Source: Eledone cirrhosa
Taxonomy: Eukaryota
Direction: 5' to 3'
Assembly: GCA_964016885.1 (NCBI GenBank)
Contig: OZ024743.1
Span: forward strand, 19,096,001-19,160,000
Length of the DNA stretch: 64,000 nucleotides
In this document: in pieces, positions 7,618-54,130 of the stretch
Numbering within the stretch: the first letter of the stretch is position 1
Layout of the letters: every line of letters starts with the position of its first letter
Translations under genes and position numbers: made by a program
The notes under the pieces: generated by a model
What the model was told of the DNA's origin: nothing
Database searches by the model: none
Seen by the model: the letters and a program-made list of their open reading frames with translations, nothing else

Positions 7618-8122
7618 TGTGATATTTTGCAATTTCGAATTTTCGCAATATTATACACATTCATTCGCCTAATTTATGTGTTGCCTCCCTTGCTGAACCC
7701 CACGTGGGGTCAGCTACAGACACATCTATGTGGTCTTTCGAACTGAATCCCGTTGATAACGCGTACTCCTAGTTCAGTCAGGATACGAGAAACTTAACAT
7801 CCTTTATGTAAGTGGACAGTAAATGAATTATGGAGCCGCAGAAACCCCAACACTGGACTTTACCATCATTCCAGGGGTCCGGGTGAGTATAAAACATTTA
7901 TGCTTTCATATATTTTTATATCTGTATATCTGTTTGATCCGAAATAGGAGATCGAATCTTCGCTGTGTGGATAATTAGTTTAACCACCATCTCAGTGTGT
8001 TTGGCCTTTAACGTAAGTTGTAAGCTCTAATTCATTTGAAATATAGAGCGCTTGCCTCACAATTCGAAAGTGTTATTTCGTTATTTCATAGGCTGAAATT
8101 CGATTCTCGCTAATTTTTACTT
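7618..8122 (+). mobile_element. Family D non-coding HHR element between (TA)n tracts
   Basis: Shares ordered blocks (ctcccttgctg, cccgttgataa, gcagaaaccc, gggtccgggt.agt, tttaacg, agctct) with 49996-50724, and several of them with 53202-54130. Confidence 0.75.
7749..7883 (+). ncRNA. Large type I HHR, U3-A8 variant, long stems II and III
   Basis: cccg-TTGATAA-[gcg..ctcc.tagttca / tgaatta.ggag.cgc]-GAAA-cccc..tgga/tcca..gggg-TC-cggg. Confidence 0.75.
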
Positions 8123-8269
8123 GTATATATATATATATATATATATATATATATATATATATATATATATATATATATATATATATATATATATATATAT
8201 ATGCGTACATATATAGTGAAAGATTGAAGAATAACATGGTCGGCTGTACAACAAGGGGCTTTATTTCAA

Positions 8270-8379
8270 GTATTGACAATTGTTTCATTGATCAGGTGAG
8301 TCTAGAGGCCGGTAATCGTTCGAAGTTACGTCACTCGACTCCAATACAGTGTTTACCTCTGATCAAATCCTCAGAATAC
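8270..8379 (-). ncRNA. Type I HHR in family E repeat (about 8221-8602)
   Basis: Minus strand: gtatt-CTGAGGA-ttgatcag...ctgatcaa-GAAA-caattg-TC-aatac, followed by AATAAA. Confidence 0.8.
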
Positions 8380-9499
8380 GAAAGAAGTCACACATGGCAT
8401 GGCATATATAAAGAAATAGCGTAGAATCAAAGCAATAACACCAATAATAAAATATAATGGTAAATAGGTAAAGAGGTTACAGATGTAAACGTTATAAACT
8501 CACTGCCTGAGTTGGAAACACCTTGTTGAGTCAAACAAAGCCGTACGTTAAAACTATCCTCGACATCTAACTGGATTACCTATAACGATAACTTGTTATC
8601 CCATATACATATATATATATATATATATATATATATATTCAATTGAAGAAAGATGGTTTCATTTGTATAACAAAATAAATATGGATGTACAAATGAAACC
8701 GTGTTACTTGTTTATATATACATATATATATATATATATATATATGTGTGTGTGTGTGTGTGTGTGTGTGTGTGTGTGTGTGTGTGTATGTGTGTGTAAA
8801 TAGAGAGACGGGAGAGTGGGGGAGACAGAGAAACAGCGCGAGTGCGAGAGTGAGATAATTTTTCCCTAATACACCCTAACCAACAACAATCCGACACCAG
8901 CTCTAAATTCGCGAAAACGCATTAGAGAAAATGCAACTGAAGTGCTACATAAAATCAAAATTTAAAAAAAGAACAGGCAAAAAGCACTTCGTATTAACGA
9001 GGACTTTACTCGACGAGTTATCAGAGGCATGTTGCAATATATATGGGTTTCCTAACCCTACCTACATACCACAAAACTAATTTAGTTCAAATACATCACA
9101 CAAAATAGAATTACTTGTTTAAATAATTCTTTCTACTTTTGGCACAAGACCAGCAATTAACTCAGTGTATTACTGTTACTTTATTTTATCGACACTGTAA
9201 GGATGAAAGGTAAATTTAACCTTGTCGGGATTTCAACTCGAGGTTAATTTTGCCTTTCATCTTACATGTTTAAATAATATTAAATACATTACAACATGTA
9301 AACCCTCATTCAAGAGTTCTTTCAAAGGGGATCGTAATCCAGCGAGTATAAAAGTATGTATTGTTATTTCTTAAAGAAAATACAAATACAATCTAGTATT
9401 TATCCCACAACACAATATCCAATTATCCAGTTAAAGAAATTATAGTGAAAAACAACTCACTGAGAACCAGTCGGGTGATAGGGATACGATCACCAGTTA

Positions 9500-50724: not shown

Positions 50725-50739
50725 ATATATATATATATA

Positions 50740-52720
50740 AGATCAGATACAACCTCCTCACGAGGAACAGCAGACTACCCGCCTTCTACCACCTTGTGAA
50801 AACACACAAACAAGGACACGACCTGAAGATCATAACCATCGTATCGAGCGTGGAAGGACCGCTGTACAAAATATCATGGCTCCTAGACAGAATACCCAAA
50901 CCCATACTAGACACCTTGCCGGGACACGTAAACAGCTCCGAGTAGGTGTTTGAGCGTCTGCATCAAATGGATCCCGACACCAGAAAGGCTAACAGATATG
51001 CCTTCAGCCTTGATGTGGTCGCTCTTTACACCTCGGTCCCGGCGCTCCCGGTTGTTGATATACTGATGGAACGCGTCTAATCTACCGACCTACACTGCTT
51101 CGAGCTCACCCCCATGGACATCCACCAACTCGTATCCGTCGTCGTTGACAACACATACTTCAGTTTTCTCAACCAAACATACGGGCAGACCTCGGGGCTA
51201 CCCATGGGCTCAAGCCTGTCACGTGTGCTAGCGATCTCATACATGGACAGCCTCGAGCGCAAGGCACTCACCACCTGTCACCCCAACGCCGTCGCCTTTT
51301 TCTCAAGATACATGGATGACATCCTCATCCTCGCAACTTCCAAGGAGATGGCGAACGGAATCTTTGAGACGGTCAACAACACGGACGAGAACATTGATTT
51401 CAGTGTTGAACACCCCAGCGACAACGGGTCACTTGCCCTCCTCGACTTCCGAATCAACATCACGGAGCAGGGAGGGATCCACACTAACTTCAACCGCAGG
51501 GCTACCTGCAGGGACTTGTTCGTCCACTACAAGTCTGCCCTCCCCAACAGCGCTAAAAGAGGGTACATCACGAACGAGATCACGTGAATTAAAAACAGAT
51601 GCAGCGATCCGGTGAGTGGTGTCACCCGCACCAAGCGATTCCTCAAAGTGCTGAAGACGAACGGGTACCCCTGCCTCACTCACAAACAGAGTAGGAGACA
51701 CCAGACGTAAGAGGCTGAGGAACACCCAAGGCAAGTGCTTCCTTAAAATACCACACATGGGCGAGAATACCACCAACGCTATCCGCAGGGCTATACGGAG
51801 AGAGGGCCTCAACATCTACCTGGCCCTCTCGGGCCCCTGCCTGCGGAGAAACCCGGGAAATCGACTCAACGCGTGTTCCCTCGTAAACTGTCCGATGCGC
51901 CATACGAAATGTTGCTTACGCACATACGTGGCATACAGGGTCGAATGTGACAAGTGCAACGGCTACTATATCGGTAGCACAATCCGGCCGCTACATATCA
52001 GGATAAAGGAGCACATCAACACCAGGGCCTCGTCTCTCCGGAAACACATCATGAAATGCGGAAACAAAGACGGAAGGCTCATTGTCACACTGCTAGCGAC
52101 GGAACGCAACGTCGGCACGCTACGAATCAAGGAAGCACTTTGGATCAAAAGCCTAGGGCCACAAATAAATAACCGATCCGAGAGAAGCGAGATGAGGTGG
52201 TTGGTGTGAACTAACGAGGCACCAACACACGCGCACACACACACACACACAGTGACATTCGAACGGTTGTTTTTGTGTGTGTAACACCGCCACCATCCAC
52301 CGACCTAATTTTTAAAAAAAAAGAAAGGAGACCAGGCAGAATACCACTAATACCAGACGACTATATTACACTGCCAGTACCAAAAACCCAACACAGATAA
52401 ACAGTACAATGGACTAACAGCTAACGGCATCCCACTCCCACAATTAAGAGAACTACTTCGACCTCTGCTTGACCACACCGATTCCACGCGCACGCGCGCT
52501 CTGCAGAATGCCTCAATTAGACACAAACAGCCAACAACAGAAGACACGTTCCATTTTTCTCCGACACATAACCCCCCCCCCAGAAAACAGCCCAGTTGAT
52601 GGATGTGAATACGAAATATAGGGACAATTAAATCCGTCTCAAGGTAACTCTATCTCGTGTTATTATTTTTATTTTTTACGCTCTTTCCTACATTCCTCTA
52701 CACACTTTACATCTCATTCT
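50740..52720 (+). mobile_element. 5'-truncated Penelope-like element (RT plus C-terminal GIY-YIG), degenerate
   Basis: FYHLVKTHK, SLDVVALYTSVP, GLPMGSSLS, RYMDD, AYRVECDKCNGYYIGSTIRPLHIRIKEH, IKEALWI; in-frame stops; decayed HHR-like motif at 52590-52625. Confidence 0.9.
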
Positions 52721-53201
52721 ATATTCCCTTACGTCAAGTGTTATTATTTTTATTTTTACGCTCTTTCCTACGTTCGTATACACACTATACATCACATTCT
52801 ACACTCCCTTACATCTCTCTCTTCACCACCGGATCCTGTTACCCGGAGAATTACCCATCTGCATTGTTGAGGCTTCCAAAACGACCAAAAGATAATAAAT
52901 TCTATTATTCCACAATGCTTCAAGCAGATTTCAATACTCTCATTATATATATATGTATATATATATATATATATATATATATATATATATATATATATAT
53001 ATATATATATATATATATATATATATATATATATATATATATATATAACGGAGGAAATGTGGTAAGGAAAAGGAAAAGTGCAGAATTAGCATTCGAAACG
53101 GCTTGAGCTCAGCCGTCGGGGTCCTACTCGTTCATATATATATATATATATATATATATATATATATATATATATATATATATATATATATATATATATA
53201 A

Positions 53202-54130
53202 GTATTCAGCGAGAATCTTATTTCGGCTGGTAGAAAAAGCTAAACGAAATGCAAAATCGTAGAAATGCTGGCAAGCGCTCCAATAGTTAATAAAACTAGA
53301 GCTAAACAATATGTTAAAACGTCATACAAACTGAATAGTGGTCAAGAAGGCATTAATCACCTAAACCAAAAAACAAGTCAGGCTAATCAGATCAAACAAA
53401 ATAAATGATATAAACAGCCCTGGACCCAAGTGGAATTGATGGTAAAATCCAAATGTAGTGTTTCTATTACACCTAAATCAATAATACTATCTGCTTAAAA
53501 CTATAAACTTTCAGCATAAAGATCGAACAAGGAATATCACGTTATCAACAGGTATTTTGCTTTGAACCAATTTTGTGAGTGACGCAAAACCTTGTAAAGG
53601 CACATGCGTAAGTCACGAGGGGAAAATTCCCCAGATTTTGGCAAATGAATTCAGTATGTGTATATCATACAAAAAATTGCATAGATAGCACAAATCGAAT
53701 AAGCACTCAACCGGGTAGTTTTAAAATAAACTTATGCAATTAATCTGTCAATAGAAGTATTAACAGGTTAATTGTAAGACTCGGGAGATTAATATAAATA
53801 TGTATTCAGCGAGAATCGTATTTCGGCTGGTAGAAAAAGCGAAACGAAACGCATAATCGTAGAAATGCTGGCAAGCACTCCAATAGTTAATAAAACTAGA
53901 GCTAAACAATATGTTAAAACGCCATACAAACTGAAAAGTGGTCAAGAAGGCATTAACCACCTAAGGCAAAAAACAAGTCAAGCTAAACAGTTCAAACGAA
54001 ATAAATGATATAAACAGACCTGGACCCAAGTGGAATTGATGGTAAACTCCAAATGCAGGGTTTCTATGACACCTAAATCAATAATAGTGTCTGCTTATAA
54101 CTATAAACTTTCAGCATAAAGATCGAACAA
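53202..54130 (-). mobile_element. Family L (D-related) 600-bp unit, about 1.55 copies, large HHR at 53419-53552
   Basis: tattcagcgagaatc at 53203 and 53803. Minus strand: cctg-TTGATAA-cgtgatat..-GAAA-c(a/c)c..tgga.tttaccatcaattcca..ggg-TC-cagg. Confidence 0.85.

Follow-up and report, generated by a model that had tools for sequence, protein, structure and literature searches.

A large, conserved hammerhead fold in a probable non-autonomous retrozyme-like family of Eledone cirrhosa

The closest described systems are the non-LTR (long terminal repeat) retrozymes of metazoans (Cervera and de la Pena, 2020, PMC7229834; review, PMC7761336; preprint, bioRxiv 10.64898/2026.07.22.740005) and the hammerhead ribozymes of Penelope-like elements (PLEs; Cervera and de la Pena, 2014, PMC4209133). 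In the available text of these sources, most invertebrate retrozyme hammerheads have a stable helix III and cleave as monomers (PMC7761336), and PLE hammerheads are viewed as acting in dimers (PMC6765202). The use that PLEs and retrozymes make of hammerheads, the role of circles as a transposition template, and the enzyme that moves animal retrozymes are described there as open (PMC4209133, PMC7761336). Here, we describe three hammerhead motifs (A, B, and C) in a 64,000-nt stretch of Eledone cirrhosa DNA (contig OZ024743.1, positions 19,096,001–19,160,000, assembly GCA_964016885.1; hereafter, the window), and the repeat family that carries them. The fold is almost certainly a real, conserved, and unusually large hammerhead, and its host is very probably a non-autonomous, retrozyme-like family. 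The original prediction, made from the window alone, had compared the motifs with PLE hammerheads; at the loci fetched, the host is a non-coding tandem-unit element and not the pseudo-LTR of a coding PLE.

Sequence inspection agrees with the original prediction on the position, strand, and parts of fold A (7749–7883, +), fold B (50348–50481, +), and fold C (53419–53552, -). All three have a 4-bp stem I, the core UUGAUAA, one extra base, a domain II of 75–79 nt (given earlier as about 80 nt), an extra A, GAAA, a domain III of 35–38 nt, and the GUC site. The core (C/U)UGAN(G/A)A, GAAA, and UH thus lie between three helices with the open end in stem I, as in type I hammerheads, with stem III decayed in window copy C. 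Fold A, supported by sequence, folding, and a descriptor scan, comprises stem I (7749–7752/7880–7883), core (7753–7759), an extra C (7760), domain II (7761–7839), an extra A (7840), GAAA (7841–7844), and domain III (7844–7878), with cleavage predicted after C7879. In fold B, the core is at 50352–50358 and GAAA at 50438–50441, cleavage is predicted after C50477, and a copy-specific C at 50454 weakens distal stem III. Fold C, with a predicted cut after 53423, has a damaged, mismatched helix II; the descriptor scan of the window recovered A and B and missed C. Both the stem I change (cccg/cggg vs. cctg/cagg) and the tgga...tcca sub-hairpin common to A and C are present as reported. The proposed ccc/ggg closure of stem III exists in A and B and is lost in C, which has A at position 15.3, where 91/93 aligned copies have C. 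Across the family, helix II is flanked on both sides by one extra nucleotide, which is A or C following A9 and A preceding GAAA (the latter in 91/93 aligned copies).

A strict motif pattern has at least 4,669 matches in the 3.0-Gb genome (a lower bound, with array units counted singly) and none in reverse; the motif therefore exceeds chance. A looser pattern gave 9,616 matches vs. 758 for its control, with some minus-strand places listed twice. A, B, and C are 67–72% identical over aligned columns and are homologous over their whole length of ~500 nt (nhmmer E 1.9e-25 and 1.2e-9), so that the flanking similarity, earlier thought to be only patchy, is in fact continuous. Around a constant core, the length of domain III varies between 8 and 54 nt and that of domain II between 39 and 94 nt. 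Many representatives were recovered by patterns that demand this core; in 68 copies identified through DNA similarity, the core is likewise almost without variation. Three further contig sets of unknown kind show the family together with the tandem junction, and metagenome contigs gave no match to one motif pattern. A repeat finder run on the window was swamped by microsatellites. Targeted Rfam scans of elements A and B gave no hammerhead match at E<=10 (C was not scanned alone), and none appears among 150 of the 177 Rfam matches to the whole window, which are mostly microsatellite-driven microRNA models. Because the Rfam models miss the motif, such large hammerhead variants may be undercounted in animal genomes.

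Selection on the fold is supported by both a shuffle test and a tree-aware test, with helix II carrying the significance. Pairing is present in 93.6% of cells in 37 representatives, compared with 88.7+/-0.7% after shuffling (0/500; a control that ignores relatedness) and 22–47% in slid registers. Tree-aware simulation of 42 representatives (19 pair tests plus 5 off-register controls, 5/5 of which are not significant) supports II.2 (0/2000), II.3 (p=0.001), and II.4 (p=0.008), with marginal values for I.2 (p=0.04) and two pairs of distal stem III (0.04 and 0.06). The covariation originally claimed therefore holds for helix II, is marginal for stem I and distal stem III, and fails for proximal stem III, where the pairs are invariant and thus carry no covariation. 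RNAalifold recovered just 11 junction-proximal pairs. Two results temper the conclusion: a Bonferroni correction over the 19 pair tests leaves only II.2 and II.3, and covariation between positions 3 and 8 is not significant (tree-aware p=0.08). For stem III, the better argument is that its ends stay constant while the loop between them takes up 8 to 54 nt, including long hairpins that are unrelated from clade to clade.

The 5' flank of the fold may form a pseudoknot with helix II, a reading that sequence comparison makes reasonably probable. Ahead of the core, at a distance of 8–10 nt, lies G(A/G)AC, and its complement, GU(U/C)C, is located where the 5' side of helix II is unpaired. In element A, the candidate 5' strand is GAACU (7740–7744, +), with a predicted partner at 7771–7775 in the 5'-side bulge of helix II (moderate support); in element B, GGAC (50340–50343, +) would pair with GUCC (50369–50372), with G-C in place of the A-U pair predicted in A and C. 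Anchors for this pairing occur in 32/39 representatives, with A-U (23), G-C (6), or G.U (3) and no mismatch at the second position, and U-A, G-C, and A-U at the next position outward. The length of the linker tracks that of helix IIa (rho 0.66), and strands pair better with their own partners than with those of other copies (-6.57 vs. -5.79 kcal/mol; 108/10,000 permutations), both being measures that ignore relatedness. Against the pseudoknot, its pairs are marginal on the tree (p=0.06, 0.06, and 0.23), with few independent changes, and the same two strands could instead pair as a nested hairpin, which precludes stem I and is seen in two minimum free energy (MFE) folds.

Distant relatives were recovered by pattern (135 matches vs. 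0 for the control; 16 vs. 0 for a second pattern). They have in common the extra bases, the long domain II, (TA)n ends, and a downstream hairpin, CUCUG...UUGAG (50620–50648, +, in element B), found in lineages with long and short stem III alike. Flank homology to A, B, and C is clear for clade F, weak for clade G, and was not detected for clade H. The short-stem H lineages have C3-G8 in 5/6 and 7/7 copies (12/13, with positions 3, 7, and 8 left open), and a palindromic, dimer-type domain III of 8–11 nt. The A, B, and C subfamilies are mostly U3-A8, and domain III measures 33–53 nt in U3-A8 relatives. In clade G, domain III is long and built of repeated palindromes. An assignment of clade G to C3-G8 was rejected: its two C3 copies had been picked by pattern, and 0/20 similarity-found copies have C3. 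Trees split A, B, and C from F, G, and H, with weak deep branches and a root that is not established; on this basis, the order C-G to U.G to U-A is a putative one.

Stem III is predicted to be stable within one molecule, as originally proposed: 17/18 domain III sequences fold by themselves at -6 to -10 kcal/mol (the remaining one is a mis-cut fragment), and those of A, B, and C do so in this same range with non-palindromic loops. For A and B alone, the MFE structure has the three-helix hammerhead topology, although the lone motifs are of ordinary stability (z -0.45, -0.55, and +0.68 for A, B, and C); in copy C, the hammerhead fold is 6.3 kcal/mol above the MFE. Several observations speak against efficient cleavage. 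A 1x1 mismatch (A.A or C.A) separates the core from G10.1-C11.1, so that helix II does not stack directly on A9/G12. Among 11 copies folded with native flanks, the hammerhead fold is the MFE in just 4, lies 0.4–3.2 kcal/mol above it in 5, and 6–13 above it in 2. Stem I is absent from all three circular-unit MFEs. Overall, the young U3-A8 subfamilies are likely to be active, with the balance tipping slightly toward cleavage as monomers.

One alternative is that the ribozyme is active only with two tandem units (through a strand-swapped stem III) or with a protein, as for minimal PLE hammerheads, the long domain III serving elsewhere. The palindromic domain III of the short-stem relatives, the repeated palindromes of clade G, the prevalence of partial tandems among B loci, and a stem I of just 4–5 bp all fit such a requirement. 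Nevertheless, the self-folding domain III of A, B, and C, with its non-palindromic loops, speaks against it, and most upstream partial copies start downstream of the cut and lack a second ribozyme; we regard a two-unit or protein requirement as improbable.

Each window site lies in a unit of ~600–625 nt (family range 580–640 nt), without a coding frame, with a GC content of about 35%, and arranged head-to-tail; like retrozymes, these units are non-coding, occur in tandem, and each contain a single type I hammerhead. Element A (7616–8123, +) is a 624-nt unit lacking ~118 nt at its 5' end and lying between two (TA)n runs, the period being given by homology and by a lag of 624 in loci L012 and L091. 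Element B consists of a full unit with a 624-nt period (50100–50720, +), whose fixed 3' end is followed by (TA)n (50720–50739), and a 5'-truncated upstream copy (49996–50099, +) formed by a unit 3' end plus an ATA junction, making a partial tandem. Element C is a full ~600-nt unit (53201–53801, -) that ends in (TA)n (53135–53200), preceded by a 5'-truncated upstream copy (53802–54130, -) that is 93% identical and retains the 3' half of a second hammerhead with CCC/GGG intact. Among 30 B loci (29 insertions), 29/30 end at position 619–621 of 621 with TA-rich sequence next, and in 23/30 another copy, full or 5'-truncated, lies immediately upstream and is joined via a few TA bases; A and C elements show the same fixed 3' end and upstream partial copies. 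Folded as circles, the units are more stable than shuffled sequences (z -2.8, -4.2, and -4.2; 3/3, with 40 shuffles each). A conserved CUCCCUU followed by CA(C/U)GUG lies 50–70 nt upstream of the core (50288–50310 and equivalent positions) in clades A, B, C, F, and G, and may be a promoter or a hairpin.

A young subfamily with a 615-nt unit is present as five arrays within the first 50 Mb of contig C1; they hold 16, 16, 7, 13, and 19 motifs. Full units are identical in two of these (15/15 and 18/18). The arrays start at different 5' points (-415, -544, -57, and -348, with one at a gap), and 4/4 ungapped 3' ends are the same, running into (TA)n. Two of the five arrays abut assembly gaps, and smoothing during assembly may contribute to the uniformity of the units. 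A separate, older array (L173, C5:84.79 Mb) differs from the identical young ones in having diverged A2-type units of ~581 nt that match one another at 88–92%.

We propose, as a modestly favored reading, that these type I folds in tandem-prone repeats cut multimers whose units become circles and are copied into (TA)n, probably by a Penelope-like reverse transcriptase (RT). Cleavage would occur within one molecule, as the independent folding of domain III suggests, with a pseudoknot of 4–7 bp, rather than the usual loop–loop contact, keeping helices I and II parallel. The unit-length RNA would then be re-ligated into a circle, and reverse transcription would be primed at the short TA tract of the unit junction, ~245–255 nt downstream of the cut, and proceed for one to many rounds around the circular template. 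The constancy of the 3' end is the reason for proposing that priming occurs at the TA tract. BLAST starts at 381–390 hinted that 5' junctions might cluster at the cut, which was not confirmed: 0/46 junctions fall within 5 nt of it (55 rows minus 9 that are array-internal or at locus edges or a gap), with 8 at +8 to +33 in an AT-rich tract and 4 at -26 to -34. Linear cleaved RNA is therefore not the usual template. Insertions exceed the ~245 nt between cut and fixed 3' end and keep the cut site intact; since they span it and have their junctions elsewhere, what is copied must be a re-ligated circle or else a multimer that was left uncleaved. The circle is favored by the long identical arrays, which sit at separate loci and begin at different 5' points. 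A mixed array argues against it: at 44.27 Mb, 5/12 units share one variant and are interspersed, which is unexpected if a single circle was copied once.

The choice between circle and uncleaved multimer bears on a second alternative, in which the fold is kept but cuts rarely or never; the family would have spread by uncleaved read-through of tandem masters, and the fold would be a handle for a helper RT or a slowly decaying relic. The absence of junctions at the cut, the mixed units in one array, the competing folds, and the mismatched base of helix II are all compatible with this. So are two departures at positions 3 and 8, which equally weaken the case for an active ribozyme: U3.G8 in 16/20 copies of clade G, and a C3.A8 mismatch fixed in the amplified subfamily A3 (C3 in 58/64 and A8 in 64/64). 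A C3.A8 mismatch would be expected to harm hammerhead activity. Of the facts that tell against a strict need for cleavage, the C3.A8 lineage carries the most weight, and it argues for caution. Conversely, all other catalytic positions and the UH site are fixed across lineages that lack flank similarity, and arrays of 16–19 identical units at separate loci need either a very long master or a circle. We consider spread without cleavage doubtful, and continue with the circle as the proposed template.

The enzyme that would copy such circles is proposed to be a Neptune-like PLE. RT and GIY-YIG remnants in the window and at the loci indicate that autonomous PLEs co-occur with the family. At locus L156 (770–1820, -), a 5'-truncated PLE endonuclease remnant plus ~140 nt of its 3' region joins a clade G unit over a few shared bases, without (TA)n. 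A C-x4-C-x2-C linker is present in 2/7 readable other copies of this PLE; in the available text of PMC8557442, this linker is tied to microsatellite targeting by Neptune elements. The L156 chimera is a lead to the helper, through a template switch or an insertion with a deletion. The lead is weakened by its being a single locus, with no further match spanning both halves among the matches listed, and by an equally good explanation, namely insertion into the PLE's own (TA)n end followed by a deletion.

L156 also bears on a third alternative, in which an autonomous PLE, unsampled as a full copy, is the source of the units as solo pseudo-LTRs or as 3' ends left by truncation. At L156, an endonuclease remnant is joined to a unit, and both (TA)n ends and partial tandems are among the traits of PLEs (PMC8557442, as far as its available text goes). 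However, in tandems the 3' end of a unit abuts the start of the next with no reading frame between them. Elsewhere, copies of the L156 PLE terminate in a short 3' region of their own that contains a small hammerhead-like motif (U3, and A before GAAA); in the 3' regions at L200, L203, L212, L213, L216, L218, and L219, this motif combines U3 with either G8 or A8, and its helix II is closed by a U-A pair. The lone protein match to a window PLE near a unit among the loci examined (L039) is 662 nt away. Apart from L156, no copy bounds an RT–endonuclease frame among the fetched loci, a sample covering a few per cent of all ~4,700 motifs. In a search of 183 stop-to-stop frames upstream of motifs (9 of which, with 8 window frames, were submitted to Pfam), only L156 has an endonuclease-like remnant directly attached, recognized by likeness to sibling frames with no Pfam hit. 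A-family copies 3–5 kb apart at C1:200.87 Mb were considered as pseudo-LTRs around a frame and rejected, as they share flanks and have no PLE frame between them. On the loci fetched, a solo pseudo-LTR origin is very unlikely, and a non-autonomous element remains our reading.

Taken as a whole, the fullest reading is possible but tentative. It holds that this is a very recently active animal retrozyme with an oversized, pseudoknotted hammerhead that cuts as a monomer despite its mismatch; that a circle is copied up to ~19 times into single (TA)n insertions of 8–11 kb by a Neptune-like PLE; and that it includes a passage from dimer type through U3.G8 to monomer type, and a spreading C3.A8 lineage. 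If true, the genome would be a fossil record of rolling-circle reverse transcription, and would also record the passage of a ribozyme from the dimer type (C3-G8, palindromic stem III) via U3.G8 to the monomer type (U3-A8, long stem III). The family makes the open questions named at the outset testable: its identical young arrays are a natural substrate, its fixed (TA)n end points to the priming site, and one junction names a candidate helper. For hammerhead biochemistry, the naturally occurring range of 3-8 states and of stem III lengths offers a set of mutants ready for use.

Other features of the window are of related kinds. A second U3-A8 hammerhead-like family (47513–47600, -; 48211–48298, +; 48643–48734, -) forms inverted repeats beside (TA)n, with a domain II of 59–63 nt and a loopless, palindromic, dimer-type stem III. 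A small U3-A8 hammerhead-like motif occurs as an inverted repeat pair (11893–11939, -; 13364–13410, +), and an inverted pair at 47121–47297 contains CUGAAGA hammerhead-like motifs with a 39-nt domain II. A broken PLE (25690–30335) has RT and GIY-YIG-like frames, a C-x4-C-x2-C linker, a (TA)n end, and, upstream, its 3' end repeated in inverted orientation; it also has a minimal C3-G8 hammerhead (30182–30218) whose helix II carries a U.U mismatch at its base. Broken PLE-like frames are also present at 50741–52209 (RT and GIY-YIG by Pfam) and 60795–62253 (no Pfam hit), and a broken endonuclease/RT element of the LINE (long interspersed nuclear element) type at 22730–25490 (-). Short repeats abut (TA)n at 4594–4696, 30531–30633, and 58721–58823; at 17446–17556; and at 53048–53134. 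One of them has a long internal inverted repeat, and they recur beside many fetched loci.

The comparisons that follow refer to the available text of the cited papers. Like metazoan non-LTR retrozymes, the family consists of non-coding, AT-rich units with one type I hammerhead each, occurring as monomers, dimers, and multimers that are highly paired when folded as circles, in a genome that also contains PLEs. The axolotl HHR_Amex2 is likewise mismatched (U.U) at the base of helix II (PMC7229834). The unit is longer, at 580–640 nt vs. 150–450 nt (up to 972 nt in the preprint), and the ribozyme of ~135 nt, with its domain II of 74–80 nt and domain III of 33–38 nt, differs from the small helices and loop 1–loop 2 contacts of the described retrozymes. 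The core is U3-A8, and the evidence here is genomic sequence. The combination of a 3' end fixed in (TA)n and 5' truncation of varying extent was not found described for them. A cautionary result is that 1/9 predicted Xenopus retrozyme dimers cleaved in vitro (bioRxiv 10.64898/2026.07.22.740005).

Minimal metazoan PLE hammerheads (PMC4209133) share with these motifs a helix I of 4–5 bp, a base between 9 and 10.1, and G10.1-C11.1, and the U3-A8 variant also occurs among them (about 1,300 Schistosoma hits). Their helix III is absent or a 1–2-bp palindrome; only the old short-stem relatives described here have such a palindromic short stem III. A, B, and C differ in their long, self-closing domain III of 33–38 nt, a second extra base before G12, a very long helix II, and no flanked frame at the loci fetched. 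Fungal and protist PLE hammerheads (PMC4209133) are also of type I with a large helix III, and the Serpula motif cleaves as a monomer, but they belong to telomeric, endonuclease-less PLEs and have no recognizable stem I–stem II contact, whereas the element here is non-autonomous, from an animal, and has a candidate pseudoknot. Watson–Crick pseudoknots holding stems I and II are predicted in about 40% of examples, across all three types, and in the cases tested activity requires them (Perreault et al., 2011, PMC3088659); the predicted partner here differs in being an internal bulge 9–13 nt into a long helix II, with 4–7 bp. The literature searched (few subscription papers and no supplements, which may show similar motifs) holds no description of this architecture. 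The distinct structural form suggested by the original prediction stands as a variant, for reasons that it partly missed. The U3-A8 core, stem I/II pseudoknots, and monomer-cleaving type I hammerheads are already in print; what is found here is the mismatched base of helix II, a candidate pseudoknot, and the series of C3-G8, U3.G8, and U3-A8 relatives with their stem III lengths.

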